Of a stretch of DNA of 17,559 nucleotides, positions 1,242-17,559 are shown one piece after another (positions within the stretch are counted from its first letter, which is position 1; every line of letters begins with the position of its first letter). The notes beneath the pieces were generated by a model. It had not been told where the DNA came from. It was given only the letters and a program-made list of their open reading frames with translations, and made no database searches. The stretch spans positions 1-17,559 of the forward strand of contig CBFGJZ010000031.1 of NCBI GenBank assembly GCA_965649215.1, read 5' to 3'. Made by a program: the position numbers and the translations under genes. The stretch comes from a candidate division WOR-3 bacterium (GTDB lineage: Bacteria; Hydrothermota; Tepidihabitantia; Tepidihabitantales; CAIPLT01).

Positions 1242-1817
1242 CTATTCTTTTCTAAATATGACAAACGACTGGTCTGCTAAAAAGTCAAAGCGGTTTGAGA
1301 TAACAAAACCGCAGCGAATTAAGGTGTTAACAATTTCGGCCTCAGGGGTATGATGGCGTCCGCGATGAAAGAGGCGGAAAAAGAAAGGCCGTGGTTTATT
1401 ATACTCAATGATGGCAATTCGGCCATGTGGTTTGAGATATTTTTTTAAGCGCGCAAAATATTTAATCGGTTCGGGCAGATGATGATAAACATTTCTTAAA
1501 AACATTAAGTCAATGCTATGTTCAGTTAGGCCAATGTCATCATTCTTTACTAAAACTGCTTCCACATTTTTTAAACCACGAGCTTGAATTTGGTTTTTAA
1601 TATATTCAACATAGGAACTTTCCGTGTCTAAGGCATAAACCTTGCCGGTTTCAGTTACTTTTTGAGCGAATTCAAAGGTATAAAAACCGCCGCCCGCACC
1701 AATGTCAGCGATAATATCGCCGGGTTTGATCCCTAGACTTTTAATCACTTCTTGTGGTTTATATTTAACGGAAGCAGCTTTTTTATTAAATTGTTCTGGT
1801 TTTGACTTTTTTGACAT
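1242..1817 (-). CDS. Class I SAM-dependent methyltransferase
   Basis: Motif I IADIGAGGG, acidic VYALD, and post-II/III motifs DLMFLRNVYHHL and LKPHGRIAIIEY. Confidence 0.9.
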   Translation of the reverse strand: MSKKSKPEQFNKKAASVKYKPQEVIKSLGIKPGDIIADIGAGGGFYTFEFAQKVTETGKVYALDTESSYVEYIKNQIQARGLKNVEAVLVKNDDIGLTEHSIDLMFLRNVYHHLPEPIKYFARLKKYLKPHGRIAIIEYNKPRPFFFRLFHRGRHHTPEAEIVNTLIRCGFVISNRFDFLADQSFVIFRKE

Positions 1818-1827
1818 ACTTACCTTT

Positions 1828-2676
1828 CTATTTTTTTAGCCAGAGATTTTTTGCTTCTGGGCTTTTTTGGCGTTCTATTAAAGTTATTGCATCTTTAGAG
1901 CAGGCAGCGCGACAAACACCGCACCCGAAACATTTTGCTGGATTAATATAAACTTTTTGATTTGAAGAAGAATAGAAAATCGCGGAAAATTGACACTGCC
2001 GAATACATTGCTTACAACCAGTACATAAATCCCAGTTGACCTCACAAATATATTCCGCACGAAAGTAATAAGAAGGTCCCTTATTGACAATATAATTGCG
2101 ATAAGCCAGACAATCATAATCGCAATTACACATACCAACAATAAATGGAGTAACGCCGGTCCAAATCGAATGTACCAATCCTTCTTGGTCAAACCTACGA
2201 AAGAGTTTTTTGGCATCGTCTTTAGTAAGTACTTCAAAAGAGGAGTCGGGTTCAGTCCCTTTTGTACCTAAAGGTCCAACGGAAACGCCAAAACAATAGC
2301 GCTCATTTGGTTTACTTGTCGTCCAATAACGACAGCCACAAGGAAATCGAGTAATATTATTAACTAAATCAATTACTTGTTCAACATCTTCAATGGGTAA
2401 AACCTGACCAAAATGTTCGACTTTAGTTTCGTAAATAATCTCTTCTTCAGTCTTAGGGACGGTCGATGATTTTAATATGTTGGGTAAATCTCCTGCAGGT
2501 TTTGTGTGAAAAGTGAAAGATCGATAGAAATTAATTATCCAATGACGACGAGTCTTGGTGCCAACAATTGCTTGTTGTTCCGGGGTTAGTTCTTCAGTTA
2601 GAAGTTCGCGGGAATAATTTTTCATCTGCAAATACCATTTTTTGCCTTCGCCATGCTTTTCACAAAATTCACACAT
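1828..2676 (-). CDS. 4Fe-4S dicluster (ferredoxin-domain) protein with additional Cys motifs
   Basis: Two CxxCxxCxxxC motifs (CTGCKQCIRQC, CFGCGVCRAAC), plus N-terminal CEFCxxH, CGCR..YC and CNCDYDC. Confidence 0.85.
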   Translation of the reverse strand: MCEFCEKHGEGKKWYLQMKNYSRELLTEELTPEQQAIVGTKTRRHWIINFYRSFTFHTKPAGDLPNILKSSTVPKTEEEIIYETKVEHFGQVLPIEDVEQVIDLVNNITRFPCGCRYWTTSKPNERYCFGVSVGPLGTKGTEPDSSFEVLTKDDAKKLFRRFDQEGLVHSIWTGVTPFIVGMCNCDYDCLAYRNYIVNKGPSYYFRAEYICEVNWDLCTGCKQCIRQCQFSAIFYSSSNQKVYINPAKCFGCGVCRAACSKDAITLIERQKSPEAKNLWLKK

Positions 2677-2741
2677 AGTTTAATGTCCTTGTGTTACACT
2701 TGTTCGGTTTGTTTTTTATCATAATTAACCCTTACCATAAT

Positions 2742-2769
2742 AAAATAACCATATAATTGGAGATGTCAA
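2742..2769 (-). promoter_or_regulatory. Possible sigma70 promoter for the Fe-S protein/methyltransferase pair
   Basis: Perfect TTGACA (2769-2764), 16 bp spacer, weak -10 TATTTT (2747-2742). Confidence 0.35.
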
Positions 2770-2940
2770 GCACAAATATTGGTTACTGGAAAGTTCTTTA
2801 ATAATCAAATTATTGTTGATAACATAATTAATATTATTGTTTGAGAAGAATTAAGTACTACGATTGAGGGGGAATAAAATGAATTGAAAGGTATATTCGT
2901 AGAAATAAGACTTTTAGCTGTTCTAATAACGGTTTTAATA

Positions 2941-2977
2941 ATAAAGTAGCCGCAGATTTGTAGTCTGCGGCTATTTT
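2941..2977 (-). terminator. Intrinsic terminator of the AAA+ ATPase gene (possibly bidirectional)
   Basis: Perfect 10-bp stem TAGCCGCAGA (2947-2956) / TCTGCGGCTA (2964-2973), 7-nt loop, T-rich tails on both strands, 13 bp past the ATPase stop. Confidence 0.8.
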
Positions 2978-2986
2978 GGTTAGTAA

Positions 2987-4468
2987 TTAGATTTTAAAAC
3001 CGATGGGTTTTGCCTGACAGAAACTATCTTGGGTTTCTTGTTTTATAAAGAAGAGTAAGTCGGCTTGGGAAATGGGACGGTTATTTTTGGCACATTTTAT
3101 TACAGTTTTTAAAATAACATTCTTGATTTTTCCGCCCACAATGGCATATTTAGCTAGTTCTTCAAACGAAACATCTGAGCTTAAGTAGGAACAGTCTTTT
3201 AAGAACATATGCCATATTTTTATTCTTGCTTCAAAAGATGGCAGGTCAAATTTAAGTTTTAATAATAGCCGTCGTTCAAATGCCTTATCAAAAATGACTT
3301 CCCGATTAGTGGTTAATATTATCAAGGATTTAGTTCTTTCTAATTTTTGCATTAATAGGTTAGTTAAGTTGTTATGCATACGATCTGCACTATGAGATTC
3401 TTCAATTCTTTTGGCAAATAAGGCATCCGCTTCGTCAAACAAGAGTACACAATCGTGATACTCTGCTTCTTCAAAACATCGTACGAGATTTTGTTGCGAC
3501 TGACCCACCCAATTACTTAATATTTTATCATAATTGACAATACCAATTTTCTTGCCTAGTTGTTTCGCGATTGCTTCAGCGGTAGCAGTTTTACCTGTGC
3601 CGGGTGGCCCATAAAAGAGCATAGCTACAGCTCGTCCATAAGGAATTTTGTCTTTTAAACCATATTTTTCATATACTTCTTCGCCGTATTGGTATTGCCA
3701 AAGAGCATCTTCAATGCTCATTTTGATGGTTGGGTTTAAAATGATATTATCAAAAGTTAATTCGGGTTTTTTTAGGTAAATCAGGTTAGATTCTGAATAT
3801 TCGTTGTCTTCTTCAAATGTATTATCAGTAATGCCGCTAATAAGTTTAAATGCTTTGATAGAGATTTGATAGGTTTTTTCAAAAGGCAACTTTTTTTCTG
3901 GTCCAAATGAAGTTTTTACCTCGACAATTAATTTTGATTTAAAAAGTTGACCATTGGTTTCAAGTAACGGACTTTGCTTGATCGGGTCTGTCTTATTAAT
4001 GTAGCCAGCAATATTTAATAAAGTAATTCCATAAATTTTTTTACTTTTGAGACGATGAAAATAAAGTAAAGCAAGAATTATGCGTTCGGCTTGCTCAAGT
4101 TTGTATTCATTGCATATTTTTTCAAATAAAATTTCTCCATTAATATTTGTTGCGTCTAATATTATATCTTGTAGTTGTTTTTTAAAAATATCCTCTTTTA
4201 TTTCAAAATAAGGTTCTTTTTTATAAAAATCAAAATCAGGGAGCGTGTTCAAAAAGCGAGCTTTGGGACCTTTGTATCCGCGGGGGTCAATAACTCCAAC
4301 CGGCACATATGATAATAATGTTTTAGGAAACTCATTAAAATTTTTGAGATAGCACTCGCAGAGCTTTTTTAAGACATACATATAATGTGAATTTAACGTA
4401 TCAATATCCTTTTGTGCTGGAGCGGCATTGTGATTGTTTTGGTTTTTTCTACAATTTTTTTCTTGCAT
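2987..4468 (-). CDS. AAA+ ATPase (SpoVK-like classical AAA domain with an uncharacterised N-terminal region)
   Basis: Walker A GPPGTGKT, Walker B LLFDEAD, sensor I TTN, arginine finger AFERR, C-terminal PIGF motif; SD AAGGAG upstream. Confidence 0.88.
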   Translation of the reverse strand: MQEKNCRKNQNNHNAAPAQKDIDTLNSHYMYVLKKLCECYLKNFNEFPKTLLSYVPVGVIDPRGYKGPKARFLNTLPDFDFYKKEPYFEIKEDIFKKQLQDIILDATNINGEILFEKICNEYKLEQAERIILALLYFHRLKSKKIYGITLLNIAGYINKTDPIKQSPLLETNGQLFKSKLIVEVKTSFGPEKKLPFEKTYQISIKAFKLISGITDNTFEEDNEYSESNLIYLKKPELTFDNIILNPTIKMSIEDALWQYQYGEEVYEKYGLKDKIPYGRAVAMLFYGPPGTGKTATAEAIAKQLGKKIGIVNYDKILSNWVGQSQQNLVRCFEEAEYHDCVLLFDEADALFAKRIEESHSADRMHNNLTNLLMQKLERTKSLIILTTNREVIFDKAFERRLLLKLKFDLPSFEARIKIWHMFLKDCSYLSSDVSFEELAKYAIVGGKIKNVILKTVIKCAKNNRPISQADLLFFIKQETQDSFCQAKPIGFKI

Positions 4469-8214: not shown

Positions 8215-9123
8215 ATGATTAGAAGTATGACTGGTGTTGGTCGAGCCGAAAGCTTATTAGCCGGCAAAAAGACCAAAGTGGTTGTCGAAGTACGCTCAGC
8301 CAATCATAAATATTTAGAAGTTAATATGAAATTGCCAAACGTGCTGAGTGGCTATGAGAATCAAATTAAAGAATTAATCAGCAGTAAAATTAATCGCGGC
8401 TCAATCCAATTGTCGATTACGATTCAAGGTGCTAACGATGAGTTAAATCAAAGCCGTCTTAAATTTAATCGCACTTTAAGTTTAGATTATGAACTTTTAG
8501 CCAATCTGATTGATTTAGCAAAACAATTAAAGAGACGATATAAGTTAAGCGGTGATTTGGATGTCAATACGGTCTTGACTTATCCAGGTATGATTGTTGC
8601 AGTTCGTGCTGATGAGCAAGAAAAACAGAAAAACATTTGGTTACGGACCAAACAAGCCATTAACAAAGCTTTGGATGTACTAAACAATATGAAAAAAGAA
8701 GAAGGCGCTTTCTTATATCAGGATTTCATGCGACGCATCCAACGGATCTCGCAATTACTAAAAAATATTGAAGTGCGTAGCAATACGCTGCGTCGGCAGG
8801 TTCAAGAGAAGGCATTAGTCAATTATGTAAATCCGTCGGAGCATAATAGTGAGGCAAGTAATAATCAAGAGTTACTGGGTGCATCGCGTGCGACTGCTGA
8901 AGAAGTAGTCCGACTGAATAGTCATATCAGTTCTTTTCTGCGGACAATCAGCGGCCGAGCCACCAAAAGCGTGGGCCGAAGGTTAGAGTTTATTTTAGCC
9001 GAGATGCTTAGAGAAATTGAAACTATTTTAGCCAAAGGACGCGATACGCAGATCAGCCGGGATGGCATTCAAATTAAAGAAGAGATCGATGCTTTAAGAG
9101 AACAGGTTAGAAATGTTGAATAA
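8215..9123 (+). CDS. yicC: YicC/YloC family endoribonuclease
   Basis: MIRSMTGVG, EVRSANHKYLE, EEVVRLNSH, VGRRLEF, REQVRNVE; usual position upstream of gmk. Confidence 0.93.
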   Translation: MIRSMTGVGRAESLLAGKKTKVVVEVRSANHKYLEVNMKLPNVLSGYENQIKELISSKINRGSIQLSITIQGANDELNQSRLKFNRTLSLDYELLANLIDLAKQLKRRYKLSGDLDVNTVLTYPGMIVAVRADEQEKQKNIWLRTKQAINKALDVLNNMKKEEGAFLYQDFMRRIQRISQLLKNIEVRSNTLRRQVQEKALVNYVNPSEHNSEASNNQELLGASRATAEEVVRLNSHISSFLRTISGRATKSVGRRLEFILAEMLREIETILAKGRDTQISRDGIQIKEEIDALREQVRNVE

Positions 9124-14333: not shown

Positions 14334-14948
14334 ATGTTGTTTAGAAAAAAAGAAAAGACTTATATTTTAGATGAACAGAGTTTAAGCAATAGCCGTTGTA
14401 CCCCATTAATTGAAAAAGGTATTTTTCAAGGTCAGTTTCTCTTAATGCGTCAACCAATCTATGAAGTAATTCCTGCCAATGTCAGTCGCGATGAGTTGAT
14501 TGAAAAAAGAATTAAAGAAAATATCGAGCGGATTAAAAAAGCCAGCAGCAATAAAGTTAAAATCTATGAAGAGCAGTTAAACAAAAATGACTTTCTAAAA
14601 CTGGCTCAAAAACATAAAGCAACTATCATTGTTTCAACAAACGACACTTATAATTTACTGGCGAGCAGTCTTAACGAGCACCATAAAGATGTTAAGATTA
14701 TTAATCTTAATGAACTTTATGAAATCTTAAAGCCCGATTATCTGCCGGGTTCAGAGTTCAAGGTGATTGTTTCTAAAAAAGGCAAAGAAGAAGACGAAGG
14801 CATTGGTTATTTAGAAGGCGGTATCAAAGTTGTCATCAGTGGTGGCGCAAAAGCAATGGGTAAAGAGATTGAAGTTATAGTCCAAGGTTCAATTGAGACT
14901 AATGTTGGTAAGCTAATCTTTGCCCGACCTAAGTATCAAGAAATGTAA
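14334..14948 (+). CDS. PIN-like/TRAM domain protein (YacL-like, lacking the N-terminal membrane region)
   Basis: C-terminal INLNELYEILKP..LPG...GKEEDEGIGYLEGGIKVVI...ETNVGKLIFA matches the YacL TRAM region; located downstream of radA as in the known radA-yacL synteny; SD AAGGAG. Confidence 0.8.
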   Translation: MLFRKKEKTYILDEQSLSNSRCTPLIEKGIFQGQFLLMRQPIYEVIPANVSRDELIEKRIKENIERIKKASSNKVKIYEEQLNKNDFLKLAQKHKATIIVSTNDTYNLLASSLNEHHKDVKIINLNELYEILKPDYLPGSEFKVIVSKKGKEEDEGIGYLEGGIKVVISGGAKAMGKEIEVIVQGSIETNVGKLIFARPKYQEM

Positions 14949-14996
14949 AATAAAAAGATTATTTTACTAAAAAAATACTCGTACCTACATTACACT

Positions 14997-15121
14997 CCTT
15001 CGCAATGACAAAAGTGAGAAGACTGTCGGTAAGATTGCTTCGGTCGCTTTGCTCCCTCGCAAAGACATAATACAAGGTGTCATTGCGAGCGAATGAAATG
15101 AGCGTGGCAATCTTGCCGACC
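14997..15121. repeat. REP/REPIN-like palindromic element between convergent genes
   Basis: Inverted halves GTCGGTAAGATTGC...CTCGCAAAGACA / TGTCATTGCGAG...GCAATCTTGCCGAC form a long hairpin (15025-15120). A partial end TCGCAATGACA lies near 15000. Confidence 0.85.
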
Positions 15122-15152
15122 GTAATTAAAATATAAAGGAATTGGGTTATTT

Positions 15153-16067
15153 TTACGATGCAGTCACTTCCAGCATTCTTTGTAATGCTTGTCGAGCTTT
15201 CAGGGCTATGGGTTCGGGCACTAAAATCTCATTGGTTTCATTTTCCAAGACATCTAAAACTTTTTCTAAAGTGGTCTTTTTCATATTAACACAGATGGCA
15301 GTTCGTTTTAAGGGATAACAGATTTTTTCCGGATAATCATACTTAATCCGATTGCACATACCTGCTTCAGTGCCCAAAACAATTTCAGGATACTCTTTGG
15401 CTAATTTAACCATCCCACTGGTGGACGCGACAAAATCGGCAATTTTAGTCACTTCGCTCAAGCATTCAGGATGGACAATAATCTTTGCATTGGGATAATC
15501 ATTACGGGCTTTGATAACATCCTGGGCTGTGAAATATAAAGCGTGGACATAACAAAACCCCTCCCAAGCAATAAGTTCTCTTTGAGTTTGGTCCTGCACA
15601 TACGCAGCCAGATTTTTATCAGGCACAAATAAGATTTTTTGTGCCTTGGGAATAGAATTGACGACTTTGACCGCATTGGCAGAAGTGCAACAGATATCAG
15701 ATTCGGCTTTAACATCCGCAGGGGTATTGACATAAGCAACGACCACCACATCACCCAGTTCTTTTTTCTTCTGCACCAATGCTTCAGCGACAATCATATC
15801 TGCCATTTCACAACCCGCATTCTTATCAGGCAGTAAGACTTTGGCCGTGGGGTTTAGGATTTTAGCGGTTTCTGCCATAAAATGCACTCCGCAGAAGACA
15901 ATAATGTTAGCTTGGGTGCTTTGGGCTTTTTGGGATAAATCGAGCGAATCGCCAATAAAATCAGCAATCTCATAGAGTTCAGGTCGTTGATAATTATGGA
16001 CTAAGATGACTGCGTTCTTGGCCTGTTTTAAGGAGAGAATCTTTTCAATCAATAATTTATCTTCCAT
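15153..16067 (-). CDS. nadA: Quinolinate synthase A
   Basis: [66 protein letters not shown]. Confidence 0.98.
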
Positions 16068-16073
16068 ATAATC

Positions 16074-16114
16074 TTTTGCTTATCACATTATAAGCAAAAT
16101 CTTATAAAATACAA
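16074..16114 (-). promoter_or_regulatory. nadA promoter overlapped by a 10-bp inverted repeat (candidate operator)
   Basis: TTGTAT (16114-16109), 16 bp spacer, TATAAT (16092-16087). Inverted repeat TTTTGCTTAT-N6-ATAAGCAAAA spans 16074-16099 and covers the -10. Confidence 0.55.
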
Positions 16115-16153
16115 GAAGTAAGACTTTTGCTAATATTTTGCGTCATTGTTCAT

Positions 16154-16350
16154 TGTCATTGCGAGACTATGAAGCAGTCATGGTAATTTTGCCAACACCC
16201 CTTCCCGTCATTGCGAGCGAATGAAATGAGCGTGGCAATCTTGCATACGGCAACAAGATGAGATTGCTTCGTCGCTTTGCTCCTCGCAAAGACATAATAC
16301 AAAGTGTCATTGCGAGCGAATGAAATGAGCGTGGCAATCTTACCGACAGT
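16154..16350. repeat. Cluster of the same REP/REPIN-like family (three forward halves, one reverse half)
   Basis: GTCATTGCGAG starts near 16155 (degenerate), 16207 and 16306; reverse half AGATTGCTTCGTCGCTTTGCTCCTCGCAAAGACA at 16261. 16261-16347 matches 15032-15120 with two substitutions and two single-base indels. Confidence 0.88.
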
Positions 16351-16406
16351 AAAAATTAAAATAAAAATCTTTAATATCTCAAAATCCAAGCGGTCTGTTT
16401 AACCTT

Positions 16407-16622
16407 ATAGGTTATCATCTCGGTTATCTTAAAGGACACCTATTAGGTGACCTATAGGGTAGCCCCCGGGCTCACCTTTTAGGTGACCTGCGGGCTTAAT
16501 TATGAGATAACTTATTAGGTCGCTAATTAGGTTATCTATTATGATAATCAGTAAGTTAGATAAGAGATGACTTGACAGGTTATCTAAATGATAAACAAGT
16601 AGGTGATAAAGAAGGTTAAGTG
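16407..16622. repeat. Degenerate 12-bp-period array, about 18 units, consensus near TTAGGT(T/G)A(T/C)CTA
   Basis: In-phase units include ATAGGTTATCAT, CTCGGTTATCTT, AAAGGACACCTA, TTAGGTGACCTA, TTAGGTGACCTG, TTAGGTCGCTAA, TTAGGTTATCTA, ACAGGTTATCTA, GTAGGTGATAAA. No indels are needed to keep phase. Confidence 0.75.
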
Positions 16623-16636
16623 GGCTCCCACAATTA

Positions 16637-16746
16637 TTTTTTTTTGCGAAAGAGGTTTTCAAACTTGAAAGGGCAAGTGCGAAATTTACCGTCAAGAACA
16701 AACGCATCACGCTTTATGCCTTAACATATAGCGTCAAGCGTTATCT
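16637..16746. repeat. Degenerate terminal copy of the 99-bp unit
   Basis: 16651-16685 matches 16761-16795 at 29 of 35 positions ungapped, followed by decayed heptamers (ACGCATC ACGCTTT ... TAGCGTC AAGCGTT). Confidence 0.65.
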
Positions 16747-17234
16747 ATCCCTTTTTCATCAGGGTTTTTCAAAGTCGAAAGTGCAAATGCGAAATGCGAA
16801 ACCAAACTTGCATTATTTGGGATATTTTGATTTCACGGTTTTTGCACTTGATATAAAAATAGCAAGCAGTTGATGTGCCTCATCCATCAAATCCTTCAAA
16901 CGAGGTGTTGGCACAAGACTGGATTCAGCAATAAGTTCAAGCCAATAAATTGTCTCATCGGCTTCTTGTTCACAAATACCAATTTTAGCAATAAAGTCCG
17001 CTTTTGACCTCGCTCTTTTTGCTTCACGATAATTTGCACCGATTGAAGTACCTGATTTCATTATCTGATAGCCGATAACATTAGCTTCAGGTGTTTTGGG
17101 CAAAGATGCAACTAATTTTATAATTCTTAAGGCAAACTGTTTTGTCCGTTCCGCTAAATCTATATGATTCATTTCACCTCCTATTATTTCATTTATCATG
17201 TCGCGATTCACAATTCGCGATTCGCGTTTGTTTA
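16747..17234. mobile_element. 'Filled' repeat unit: left arm + four-helix-bundle gene + right arm (putative cassette; mobility is inferred)
   Basis: 16747-16806 matches the first 60 bp of the 99-bp unit with one mismatch. 17201-17234 has the same 4 heptamers + 6 nt geometry as the unit's right arm. Confidence 0.55.
16813..17172 (-). CDS. Four-helix bundle protein (23S rRNA intervening-sequence protein / bAvd-like fold), 119 aa
   Basis: DLAERTKQFALRIIKL, QIMKSGTSIGANYREA, SKADFIAKIGICEQEADETIYWLELI. SD AGGAGGTG just before ATG 17172; the ORF-track start at 17247 lies within the repeat. Confidence 0.93.
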   Translation of the reverse strand: MNHIDLAERTKQFALRIIKLVASLPKTPEANVIGYQIMKSGTSIGANYREAKRARSKADFIAKIGICEQEADETIYWLELIAESSLVPTPRLKDLMDEAHQLLAIFISSAKTVKSKYPK

Positions 17235-17559
17235 ATCCCTTTTTCATCAGGGTTTTTCAAAGTCGAAAGTGCAAATGCGAAATGCGGAACCAAAGACTTT
17301 CGCGTTCCGCGTTTAGCATTTCGCGTTTACTACATCCCTTTTTCATCAGGGTTTTTCAAAGTCGAAAGTGCAAATGCGAAATGCGGAACCAAAGACTTTC
17401 GCGTTCCGCGTTTAGCATTTCGCGTTTACTACATCCCTTTTTCATCAGGGTTTTTCAAAGTCGAAAGTGCAAATGCGAAATGCGGAACCAAAGACTTTCG
17501 CGTTCCGCGTTTAGCATTTCGCGTTTACTACATCCCTTTTTCATCAGGGTTTTTCAAAG
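17235..17559. repeat. Tandem array of identical 99-bp palindromic units (3 full copies plus a partial copy, running off the window)
   Basis: Units start at 17235, 17334, 17433 and 17532: ATCCCTTTTTCATCAGGGTTTTTCAAAGTCGAAAGTGCAAATGCGAAATGCGGAACCAAAGACTTTCGCGTTCCGCGTTTAGCATTTCGCGTTTACTAC. Confidence 0.97.

Follow-up and report, generated by a model that had tools for sequence, protein, structure and literature searches.

A 23S rRNA IVP-family gene and gene-less units share heptamer arms in a tandem array: a candidate selfish module outside rRNA

In this work we analyzed a 17,559-nt stretch of DNA (the window) in which a gene of the 23S rRNA IVP family lies within an array of palindromic units. 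The gene-bearing unit consists of a PF05635/TIGR02436 gene, its ribosome-binding site, and little else, enclosed between inverted heptamer arrays. Comparison with homologous loci indicates that this arm-gene-arm anatomy is the usual one for the family across many phyla, and alignments of Nostoc plasmids indicate that the module there is a discrete unit, present in four unrelated contexts and twice within genes that are intact elsewhere. We lean toward the view that the locus represents a small selfish module, present in one copy with the gene and several without, which resembles an rRNA intervening sequence (IVS) and lies outside rRNA; RNase III would process its arms, and the encoded protein would propagate it.

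RESULTS

Tandem Repeats Finder placed the array at positions 17221 to 17559 (period 99, 3.4 copies, 98% matches, score 650). Three complete units without a gene, E1 (17235-17333), E2 (17334-17432), and E3 (17433-17531), are identical in all 99 of 99 columns, and each is made up of a linker, a left arm, a 5-nt centre, and a right arm that together fold as a hairpin; the centre holds no recognisable gene remnant. The start of a further unit (17532-17559; linker plus 3 nt) ends with the window, so the array extends past the window end and the unit count is a lower bound. The 60-nt linker plus left arm is present at 16747, 17235, 17334, and 17433, and a lag-7 periodic run is detected in the left-arm part of the units.

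The copy at 16747 belongs to the filled unit and matches the three array copies at 59 of 60 positions (98%). This unit opens with a 25-nt linker (16747-16771) that contains a 4-bp mini-hairpin, seen in every fold that we computed, followed by a left arm of five heptamers (16772-16806), which lies downstream of the gene. The gene itself occupies 16813-17172 on the minus strand and encodes 119 amino acids; it is preceded by a 28-nt leader (17173-17200, minus strand) with a Shine-Dalgarno sequence (GGAGG) immediately before the ATG, the leader terminating in GGAGGTGAA ahead of that codon. The right arm (17201-17234), upstream of the gene, is built from variant heptamers. Left arms of the filled and empty units are identical at 34 of 35 positions, and the right arms, 34 nt in each case, at 22 of 34. 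The 394 bp between the arms comprise 6 nt past the stop codon, the ORF, and the leader, and nothing else. The original prediction, made from the letters of the window, had placed the gene within one unit of a palindromic array, with a 59/60 identical linker and left arm, a 394-bp replacement of the centre holding little beyond the gene and its Shine-Dalgarno sequence, and a right arm of unchanged geometry and different heptamers; our analysis reproduced all of these features.

Beyond the filled unit, at 16637-16746, lies a decayed unit with linker-like, left-arm-like, and right-arm-like parts and an 11-nt insert, and the gene is therefore inside the array and not at its edge. The linker and left arm of the decayed unit match the reference copy at 63% identity, the whole unit shares 58 invariant columns of 99 with E1 to E3, and its folding is weak (z, -1.9). 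This unit was absent from the earlier listing of the locus.

The 25-nt linker finds no explanation in our preferred reading. A 23-nt stretch of it had no exact match in genome_contigs, a collection without the source genome and its near relatives, and when the open frame running through the array was translated and used as a protein query, none of 1692 candidates scored. The motif CCYTGATG, common to this linker and to one other array-bearing locus (L043), was considered as a general motif and was found downstream of the gene in just 2 of 79 genes. The minus-strand linker contains CUGAUGA, but a hammerhead ribozyme at this position was ruled out by Rfam, which gave no match of any kind, rRNA included, at the gathering threshold across the whole window and chance-level matches alone, far under gathering, when run in E-value mode on 16100-17559. 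The array is not a CRISPR array: whole 99-bp units are identical, so there are no unique spacers between repeats, and the best Rfam CRISPR repeat match scored 20.4 bits, below the gathering score of 48. The neighbours of the element in the window are protein-coding genes, and the 19 ORFs of the window that were scanned contain no reverse transcriptase, transposase, or integrase domain. The prediction that the window lacks rRNA, reverse transcriptase, and transposase was accordingly upheld.

The 119-aa protein matches PF05635 (E = 3.9e-19; 69.3 bits against a cut-off of 33.8) and TIGR02436 (92.2 bits against a cut-off of 24). Its AlphaFold2 model (pLDDT 93.3) has four predicted helices (residues 6-23, 28-52, 57-83, and 89-115), and Foldseek matched the protein to 2rld (TM 0.83), 2gsc (TM ~0.8), and the Avd structure 4dwl (TM 0.74), as well as to Avd inside DGR ribonucleoprotein structures. 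A profile of the protein matches 2rld at an E value of 8e-31; identity is 38% to 2rld and 13% to Avd. Profile searches, model, and structural matches thus agree with the predicted assignment to the IVP family, with an Avd-like four-helix bundle. Avd is a pentamer, and the crystal entries 2rld and 2gsc contain five chains each, as expected of an Avd-like pentamer. No nuclease or recombinase domain was recognisable by Pfam, NCBIfam, PADLOC, or Foldseek, and PADLOC returned no defence-system match. The family is large, a single-sequence search yielding 12,598 clusters (50% identity) at an E value of ≤0.001 and 4,480 at ≤1e-10. The closest relatives are 76 to 81% identical. Many homologues lie on contigs of 0.5 to 2 kb, which suggests that such loci break assemblies. 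In the text of a 2024 preprint, the family was still termed functionally uncharacterised (10.1101/2024.02.27.582315).

Heptamer runs proved to be a general feature of the flanks of these genes. We scanned genome_contigs, where 594 of the 598 candidate stretches listed encode a relative, and retained the best 80 loci, which span at least 15 named phyla. Among 78 homologous loci, 64 have a run upstream of the gene, 62 have one downstream, and 55 have both; 7 have neither, and in 4 of these 7, whose flanks were inspected by eye, the runs had been missed by the threshold. Best-window lag-7 identity in the 120-nt flanks averaged 0.71 upstream and 0.66 downstream, versus 0.39 in 395 control windows, while other lags gave 0.39 to 0.45 and lag 14 gave 0.6. 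The arms lie close to the coding sequence, at a median of 27.5 nt ahead of the start and 11 nt past the stop. Homologues lacking inverted heptamer flanks, which the original prediction had named as evidence against itself, are therefore not what we found; such flanks are typical of the family and stand on both sides of the gene in 55 of 78 loci. Our literature searches, which covered articles apart from their supplementary tables, found no paper in which inverted heptamer arms are tied to the family at large.

The two arms of a locus are related to each other. In 21 of 55 loci, the upstream and downstream consensus heptamers are exact reverse complements, and in a further 17 they are one base away from being so, compared with 1.2% and 7.2%, respectively, for mismatched locus pairs; 46 of 75 loci had an inverted alignment score above the 95th percentile for mismatched pairs. 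Sequence comparison of this kind indicates that the two arms of one locus evolve in concert. The arms also have a preferred order (G-rich first in 54 loci, C-rich first in 9, ties in 8), and GA occurs within the heptamer in 63 of 71 cases, versus 38% expected. Mapped onto the protein tree, heptamer class required 37 changes, a value as low as which was seen in 2 of 500 label shuffles (mean, 43.5), and host phylum required 34, compared with 51 after shuffling (0 of 500 shuffles). The weak heptamer signal and the strong phylum signal argue against two things: a tight specificity of protein for heptamer and frequent transfer from phylum to phylum.

Folding of the window's units gave a mixed picture. 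The empty unit folds well as DNA or RNA on either strand (z, -3.2 to -3.9; equalled by 0 to 1 of 200 shuffles), and the arm-versus-arm duplex is stable in both the empty unit (-28.9 kcal/mol; z, -4.5; 0 of 300 shuffles) and the filled unit (-23.1 kcal/mol; z, -3.5; 0 of 300 shuffles). In the minimum-energy fold of the entire 488-nt filled unit, however, no pairing between the two arms is seen. Few arms in the set are less complementary than those of the filled unit, which have an inverted score of 19, close to the control median of 16 (median for the set, 33), and whose consensus heptamers disagree at 3 of 7 positions; the filled unit of the window is thus a weak example of the inverted-arm anatomy. 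G-U wobble asymmetry among stem mismatches, examined as a test of which RNA strand folds, gave no signal (91 versus 92, with 340 transversions). There is no G-U excess on either strand, and therefore nothing specific to RNA pairing over inverted repeats at the DNA level. The suggestion that selection acts on structure consequently holds only in part: it is favoured by the concerted change of the arms within a locus but finds no echo in the stem mismatches or in the low score of the window's own arms.

Gene-less hairpins were also found elsewhere. Of 64 inverted heptamer-run pairs, 47 enclose an IVP gene (43 identified by script and 4 mis-scored by it), and 10, in 9 loci, lie no more than 100 nt apart with no gene between them, although two of these loci (L011 and L051) are doubtful. 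One further inverted pair is separated by 193 nt, and 6 long-range pairs, the interiors of which were outside the scan, are read as arms of different hairpins. Some gene-less hairpins are kilobases distant from any IVP gene. In L043, a 111-bp array (2.4 copies, 95% identity) adjoins the gene, and its empty units retain the final 18 nt of the ORF exactly; they are therefore deletion derivatives of a filled unit and not empty sites. In another locus (L008), 288-bp tandem copies consist of half of the gene and one arm. The predicted coexistence of filled and empty hairpins thus extends to other genomes.

Nostoc plasmids allowed presence and absence to be compared. An arm-gene-arm module of ~465 bp is found in them in four unrelated contexts; five copies are 84 to 87% identical at the nucleotide level to L081, with homology that begins and stops at the arms and with flanks that are unrelated. 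In one case the module substitutes for ~300 nt of an ORF of 138 aa that is intact in two other plasmids, and in another it takes the place of ~330 nt in a gene for a DNA cytosine methyltransferase; a further plasmid has this gene intact, with a single heptamer copy at the left junction. The two junction pairs show no target-site duplication, and microhomology amounted to a few bases at most; both replacements could reflect passive illegitimate recombination. One copy (L088) carries an extra 26-nt segment in both arms, in inverted orientation. Solo matches of the Nostoc arm (L090 to L092) were considered as empty hairpins and rejected, since they are direct heptamer runs without a gene. The proposed check for precise gain or loss therefore had a positive outcome, in that a homologous module is present or absent with boundaries at the arms. 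Arm-bounded presence and absence, together with the four plasmid contexts, fit the proposed pairing of autonomous and non-autonomous elements.

As regards transcription, 65 of 75 loci have the gene and its upstream neighbour on the same strand (baseline, 188 of 264; p = 0.002), and 51 of 73 have the gene co-directional with both neighbours (versus 55%; p = 0.013), while co-orientation with the downstream neighbour was nonsignificant (p = 0.10); the excess is modest. Median gaps to the neighbours are 82 and 66 nt. When 16000-17559 was scanned, nothing resembling a promoter was found on the minus strand of 17173-17559, which takes in the array and the DNA ahead of the gene, and the whole stretch gave no terminator-like site; the loop between the arms leaves no space for an internal promoter.

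DISCUSSION

We suggest the following course of events for this locus. The 99-bp units may be non-autonomous derivatives of the gene-bearing unit that were multiplied in place by slippage or by unequal recombination between the repeated arms and linkers, and this multiplication would have been recent because three units are identical. The module presumably lacks a promoter of its own and would be transcribed by read-through out of the upstream gene. In the read-through transcript the arms may pair, and by analogy with rRNA IVSs, RNase III may cut the stem; such a cut would release a small mRNA and uncouple it from its neighbours. The protein, as an Avd-like nucleic-acid-binding protein, may in turn act on the heptamer arms and so maintain or copy the module. 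The RNase III step and the action of the protein on the arms are the least secure parts of this explanation.

Other explanations deserve consideration. The heptamer hairpins could be host repeats, REP/BIME-like or STRR-like, which serve as stabilisers, terminators, or protein sites and arise by slippage, with IVP genes simply lodging there. Solo direct heptamer runs in Nostoc plasmids, hairpins situated kilobases from any IVP gene, and the single heptamer at the left junction of the intact methyltransferase gene are all in keeping with this idea, as are the inverted heptamer pairs of Xanthomonas, described with the gene unmentioned in the main text (PMC4692102), and the paired tandem repeats of Geobacter, interpreted in that paper as global-regulator sites (PMC2700814). 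We nevertheless consider it unlikely, given that the arms move with the gene (arms and gene are common to five copies in four contexts, whereas the flanks are not), that they adjoin the start and stop codons in most of 78 loci, that the extra 26-nt segment of L088 is inverted in both arms, and that the array contains no terminator-like site. A more prosaic possibility, to which we attach a low probability, is that the array is partly an artefact and that the true locus has one or two hairpin units around which the assembler looped at a contig end. A k-mer size of 99 is commonly used in assembly and equals the period observed here; moreover, the array is cut at the extreme end of the window, three of its units are identical, and many homologues are on very short contigs, as if such loci were prone to break assemblies. 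Against this, the unit has internal structure, with heptamer arms that are related to, yet distinct from, those of the filled unit; on the other side of the gene the linker and left arm are found again, with a single mismatch, and a decayed unit lies beyond them; and L043 has a similar array. An artefact could change how many units are counted, but empty units would still exist.

The original prediction had also raised the idea of gene-capture cassettes, that is, an integron-like array in which the linker is a recombination site, the units move as small circles, and the gene is captured cargo. The regular unit boundaries, the identical linker, and the presence of a single filled unit among empty ones are what such an array would look like, and the read-through C-terminal tail of one relative best matches the window's linker and left arm (tblastn; weak E values of 0.3 and 1.6). 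The 19 ORFs of the window include no integrase or other recombinase, however, and no pair fitting the attC core-site consensus, RYYYAAC...GTTRRRY, was found 40 to 140 nt apart on either strand of 16601-17559. Only IVP genes were seen between arms (47 of 64 pairs, the interiors of the 6 long-range pairs lying outside the scan), the Nostoc units have their boundaries at the arms and possess no linker, and the empty units of L043 hold a gene remnant and hence are deletions. The cassette reading is thus without support, and we regard it as very improbable. Even harder to sustain is the notion of a DGR remnant, in which an Avd gene would have been left without its reverse transcriptase, with the repeats as debris of template and variable repeats. 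The fold does resemble that of Avd, both in 4dwl (TM 0.74) and within DGR ribonucleoprotein structures, and PF05635 is given as the commonest Pfam family around DGRs (PMC10053308). But the window has no reverse transcriptase, the protein is nearer to the non-DGR structures 2rld (38% identity, TM 0.83) and 2gsc than to Avd (13%), and the repeats are short palindromic heptamer arrays; a repeat search of 14900-17559 found no template/variable pair. The same anatomy, in addition, is seen in 78 loci picked regardless of DGRs and unscanned for reverse transcriptases. We give this last explanation almost no credence.

A small selfish module, the reading that we prefer, has counterparts among known systems. 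ORF-less rRNA IVS hairpins exist and parallel the window's empty units, and the 23S rRNA IVSs of Leptospira and Coxiella involve the same protein family as the window gene. The account of the Coxiella IVS in PMC4990558 describes RNase III cutting the stem of terminal inverted repeats and tandem heptameric repeats, variable in copy number among strains, directly upstream of the ORF, and it treats ORF-bearing 23S rRNA IVSs as selfish or possibly mobile. The window element is similar in having its ORF in the loop of a terminal-inverted-repeat stem with heptamers upstream, and stem-capable inverted repeats do surround the ORF, as judged from the arm duplex (-23.1 kcal/mol), although the arms are unpaired in the whole-unit fold. 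Unlike these IVSs, it contains no rRNA, is not inserted in a 23S rRNA helix, and is situated between protein-coding genes; its tandem empty units and 25-nt linker are, moreover, features that we did not meet in descriptions of rRNA IVSs.

The locus also shares properties with RAYT/REPIN systems, namely, a single gene between inverted short repeats, gene-less inverted doublets that may be non-autonomous, and a chromosomal position among housekeeping genes. RAYTs, however, are HUH/Y1 transposases, while the window protein is a 119-aa four-helix bundle that has no nuclease domain and no other Pfam or NCBIfam match. The window's arms are heptamer arrays, whereas a REP is a single palindrome, and its empty units are, as far as is visible, tandem and not dispersed. 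With MITEs, the empty units have in common that they are short, non-coding, and bounded by terminal inverted repeats, as seen for E1 to E3 in the window. Internal deletion from a gene-bearing parent, a further trait of MITEs, was seen solely in L043. They differ from MITEs in that no target-site duplication (two Nostoc junction pairs) and no transposase were found and in that they are tandem rather than dispersed. Avd resembles the window protein in its four-helix-bundle fold (TM 0.74 to 4dwl), but identity is 13%, and there was no reverse transcriptase among the 19 scanned ORFs of the window and no template/variable repeat pair in 14900-17559.

Heptamer tandem repeats are not in themselves unusual in bacteria. 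The STRR of cyanobacteria are of this type, and solo runs of the Nostoc module's heptamer are found on Nostoc plasmids. Tandem GGGAATC heptamers in Xanthomonas are described as intergenic and often arranged in convergent pairs on opposite strands with variable spacing (PMC4692102), and paired tandem repeats of Geobacter metallireducens are likewise often convergent on opposite strands, with variable spacing (PMC2700814). The main texts of these two papers differ from our findings in drawing no link to a four-helix-bundle gene, and the terms "helix bundle," "four-helix," and "S23" do not occur in them.

These findings have practical consequences, in that IVP loci disrupt short-read assemblies and may get called as CRISPR-like arrays. 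In this regard, 23S rRNA IVP is listed among the abbreviations in a figure panel on proteins scored for CRISPR association (PMC10910872). More broadly, the family gains a concrete, testable biology, that of a selfish module with defined ends, and is tied to two long-standing questions, namely, how rRNA intervening sequences arose and what heptamer tandem repeats signify. One further and decidedly tentative idea is that a very widespread, so far unrecognised class of bacterial mobile elements ends in heptamer arrays and has IVP proteins as its trans-acting factor. If this is true, a single framework would cover rRNA IVSs, the intergenic modules with their empty derivatives, and at least part of the heptamer repeats; STRR-type repeats and the inverted pairs of Xanthomonas and Geobacter would be partly explained, and the Avd of DGRs would be a domesticated relative of the IVP trans-acting factor.

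Results

Together with the gene, a tandem repeat with a period of 99 bp (17221-17559; 3.4 copies, 98% matches) occupies the final 900 bases of the window. Three empty units (17235-17333, 17334-17432 and 17433-17531) are the same at all 99 positions, and a further unit, following 17531, is interrupted by the window end. Each unit is built of a 25-nt linker (with a 4-bp mini-hairpin inside) and two arms, a left one of 35 nt made up of heptamers and a right one of 34 nt, around a 5-nt centre; on folding it gives an imperfect hairpin of about 24 bp (z of -3.2 to -3.9 as DNA or RNA on both strands, with 0 to 1 of 200 shuffles equally stable). The linker and left arm of the filled unit (16747-16806) differ from the array copies by 1 mismatch in 60; its 34-nt right arm lies 394 bp beyond the left arm and is identical to the array right arm at 22 of 34 positions. 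Between the arms lie 6 nt, a minus-strand ORF of 119 codons (16813-17172) for an intervening-sequence protein (IVP), and a 28-nt leader with a terminal Shine-Dalgarno sequence. A decayed unit, absent from the original prediction, is found at 16637-16746 (63% identity in linker and left arm; 58 of 99 columns invariant over the entire unit), so that array units stand on either side of the gene-bearing one. The original prediction had described the array and filled unit correctly.

The two arms of the filled unit pair when isolated (-23.1 kcal/mol; 0 of 300 shuffles equal this), and arm-arm pairing is absent from the fold of the entire filled unit. By the standards of its family this is a weak member, with an inverted score of 19 (family median, 33; control median, 16) and arms whose consensus heptamers disagree at 3 of 7 positions. 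A 23-mer from the linker had no exact match in a GTDB set of one genome per species, outside which the host's own genome lies. A protein search with the frame left open through the array likewise gave no match; for the read-through tail of a 76%-identical relative, the best matches were the window linker and left arm, at weak E values of 0.3 and 1.6.

A second, unrelated palindromic family, with the core GTCATTGCGAG and an inverted partner, lies on both sides of nadA (14988-15125 and 16154-16350). The core has 8 matches in the window with at most one mismatch (0.27 expected), one of which, at 8748, is unrelated, and it is present in just 2 of 89 fetched loci. Between the two repeat families, a stretch rich in short repeated words (16385-16625) has a minus-strand RNA fold of -61.9 kcal/mol (z of -4.25; 0 of 200 shuffles); an overlapping 93-aa ORF (16429-16710, minus strand) matched nothing in Pfam or NCBIfam.

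The window protein matches PF05635 (69.3 bits; cut-off, 33.8) and TIGR02436, "four helix bundle protein" (92.2 bits; cut-off, 24). Its AlphaFold2 model, built from 29 sequences, has four helices and a pLDDT of 93.3, and superimposes on 2rld, a Bacteroides protein of the "S23 ribosomal protein family" (TM 0.83, 38% identity), on 2gsc from Xanthomonas (TM about 0.8) and on 4dwl, the Avd protein of the Bordetella phage retroelement (TM 0.74, 13% identity). No PADLOC defence family matched it. The other genes of the window are chromosomal housekeeping genes (fpg, asparaginase, DJ-1, dtd, yicC, gmk, coaBC, dnaB, radA and nadA), and our scans agree with the earlier statement that the window holds no rRNA, reverse transcriptase or transposase; no integrase was found in it either. 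The nearest named relatives of the RadA protein belong to candidate division WOR-3 (63% identity), which makes the host an uncultured bacterium that probably falls in that group or close to it. Elsewhere in the window, on the minus strand, an AAA ATPase (2987-4468) matches the IetA defence protein (E of 1.6e-36) and a methyltransferase (1242-1817) matches the "mad2" model (E of 5.6e-17). With the 4Fe-4S protein that lies between them, they may form a small defence island (1242-4468).

A profile scan of genome contigs confirmed at least 594 relatives, and the best 80 loci (50 to 64% identity; at least 15 phyla named in record titles) were retained, yielding 78 homologous genes for flank comparison. 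Mean best-window identity at lag 7 was 0.71 in upstream and 0.66 in downstream flanks, whereas the 395 control windows taken in those loci averaged 0.39; the other lags from 4 to 11 gave 0.39 to 0.45. A lack of inverted heptamer flanks at homologous genes, which the original prediction had raised as a point that would count against it, was not what we observed: heptamer runs stood upstream of 64 of the 78 genes, downstream of 62 and on both sides of 55. Seven genes had neither run, and in all four of these whose flanks were inspected by eye, inverted heptamer-like sequence was present. Of the 55 loci with both runs, 21 have upstream and downstream consensus heptamers that are exact reverse complements, and 17 have heptamers one base short of this (1.2% and 7.2%, respectively, when arms were paired between different loci). 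When the upstream flank was locally aligned with the reverse-complemented downstream flank, 46 of 75 loci scored above the 95th percentile for mismatched pairs. Arms lie at a median of 27.5 nt ahead of the start codon and 11 nt past the stop. Read towards the gene, they are G-rich in 54 loci and C-rich in 9, with 8 ties, and GA is present in 63 of 71 heptamers (38% expected). The arm-gene-arm architecture is therefore general in the family, although the specific sequence in the window was not seen elsewhere in the collections searched.

In three Acidobacteriota loci (L013, L014 and L028; around 3900-4000), the upstream arm begins directly after sequence ending ...CCTCCGCCA, resembling the 3' end of a tRNA or tmRNA gene. 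These loci and L034 share the conserved coding sequence that follows, and this suggests an old insertion site common to all four.

By script, the 80 loci and the window contained 64 inverted pairs of like heptamer runs no more than 2 kb apart. An IVP gene was enclosed by 43, and by 4 more (in L007, L050, L053 and L074) whose ORF reads into the arm. Ten pairs, from 9 loci, were gene-less with arms at most 100 nt apart, those of L011 and L051 being doubtful because both runs were typed as G-rich; one pair had a 193-nt gap, and the other six are long-range and were read as arms belonging to different hairpins. Within the 58 pairs with a gap below about 400 nt, we found no gene other than IVP.

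The clearest parallel to the window array is an Anaerolineales locus (L043, partly masked), where a 111-bp tandem array (2.4 copies, 95%) begins 158 nt downstream of the IVP gene. Its unit comprises the gene's upstream arm, the exact last 18 nt of the ORF, the downstream arm and a linker; these empty units are internal-deletion derivatives of a filled unit. At a second locus (L008, 4136-5690, partly N-masked), a full IVP gene precedes tandem 288-bp copies that join its C-terminal half to the downstream heptamer arm, and at a third (L080) the arms lie in higher-order tandem repeats on both sides. Evidently such loci amplify readily in tandem where they stand, and this is the simplest explanation of the three identical units in the window. 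Many of the closest homologues of the window protein lie on contigs just 0.5 to 2 kb long, consistent with short-read assemblies breaking at repeated arms; assembled metagenomes probably understate how common the family and its arrays are.

Relatives occur in 31 plasmid records, mostly from Nostoc. In Nostoc punctiforme pNPUN02, one heptamer stands in four perfect copies on one side of the IVP gene, and its complement in four copies on the other. A 138-aa ORF is intact at the orthologous site in two other plasmids and wholly absent from a fourth; in pNPUN02 its first 66 nt and last ~55 nt are left, with the module (arm, gene and inverted arm) in place of about 300 nt. These remnants carry no annotation. 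In pNPM1 and p057_G, a module (87% DNA identity) stands in place of about 330 nt of a DNA cytosine methyltransferase gene that is intact, with a single heptamer copy at the left junction, in pC052_C; the "hypothetical proteins" annotated either side of the IVP gene in pNPM1 are the two halves of the disrupted gene. Disrupted-gene remains lie at 2378-2450 and 2906-2965 of one fetched Nostoc plasmid locus (L081) and at 411-641 and 1029-1307 of another (L085). Two more copies sit in other contexts, and in an alignment of all five, homology runs from upstream arm to downstream arm with unrelated flanks, giving four contexts. Both Nostoc events are replacements with microhomology of at most a few bases, and no target-site duplication was seen in either. 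These cases show the module to be a discrete unit copied into new places, which does not by itself establish a mechanism or a role for the protein.

In one of the five Nostoc copies (L088; 540-700 and 1010-1060), both arms contain an extra 26-nt non-heptamer segment, inverted and with one mismatch; some process of copying or selection thus keeps the two arms matched. Three other loci (L090, L091 and L092; around 250-290 in each) carry solo direct runs of 4 to 5 copies of the Nostoc module heptamer, with neither an inverted partner nor a gene in the surrounding 250 nt, so single arms or independent heptamer repeats exist too.

Discussion

The loop of the filled unit leaves no space for a promoter, and scanning the minus strand ahead of the gene and through the array revealed none. 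Of 264 adjacent gene pairs elsewhere in the homologous loci, 188 are co-directional; family members share the direction of their upstream neighbour more often, in 65 of 75 loci (p = 0.002). The downstream neighbour runs the same way in 61 of 76 (p = 0.10), and both neighbours do so in 51 of 73 (against 55%; p = 0.013). Median gaps to the two neighbours are 82 and 66 nt. The pattern is in keeping with a module that relies on read-through transcription, like the rRNA intervening sequence (IVS). In the account given of the Coxiella IVS, RNase III cleaves within the terminal-inverted-repeat stem, and tandem heptameric repeats of strain-variable number lie directly upstream of the ORF (PMC4990558). 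Given the read-through fit and this likeness, the best reading is an IVS-type module outside rRNA, which would be transcribed by read-through and whose arms, by analogy, may be processed in the transcript.

This reading is tempered by two results. Stem mismatches do not point to selection on RNA pairing itself (G-U type, 91 on the sense and 92 on the antisense strand; 340 transversions). Similarity between the arms could equally be maintained at the level of DNA, or the arms could be oriented arrays of candidate binding sites. On a tree of 72 proteins, heptamer class changes 37 times (shuffled-label mean, 43.5; 2 of 500 as low) and host phylum 34 times (against 51; 0 of 500 as low). Heptamers change quickly and show no tight link to protein sequence; inheritance of the genes runs mostly within phyla.

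The original prediction offered an autonomous/non-autonomous pair or a gene-capture cassette array. The former is supported by analogy and the latter is not supported. An integron-like cassette array is unlikely, since the window has no integrase, no attC-type sites were found in 16601-17559, the close inverted pairs carry only IVP genes as cargo and the empty units of the Anaerolineales locus carry a gene remnant. It is possible that the heptamer hairpins are generated by the host and that the gene merely lodges in them, as the solo runs and the hairpins distant from any gene would allow; the five Nostoc copies, in which gene and arms travel together, argue against this.

The fold shared with Avd raises the idea of a retroelement remnant, which is unlikely given that the window lacks a reverse transcriptase and that its protein is much nearer to non-retroelement members of the family. 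An assembly artefact could have altered the copy number at the contig end, but it is unable to produce the unit itself, with its far-side copy of linker and arm, distinct arms and decayed neighbour.

Pieces of this arrangement have appeared in print. A description of inverted GGGAATC heptamer pairs in Xanthomonas makes no mention there of this protein family (PMC4692102), and for the Geobacter metallireducens genome, tandem repeats of seven or eight nucleotides, paired across opposite strands, are listed as putative regulator sites (PMC2700814). A survey of diversity-generating retroelements notes PF05635 as Avd-like (PMC10053308), 23S rRNA IVP is among the abbreviations in a figure panel on proteins scored for CRISPR association (PMC10910872), and a 2024 preprint calls the domain functionally uncharacterised (10.1101/2024.02.27.582315). 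We found no publication that makes the general link between the IVP family, inverted heptamer arms and gene-less hairpin arrays; supplements might hold one. We classify the locus as a module of the rRNA-IVS type that lies in intergenic DNA and is accompanied by an array of empty copies. It belongs to a family of at least 12,598 clusters at 50% identity, and the generality of the arrangement, together with the evidence of module movement, makes the locus worth pursuing.
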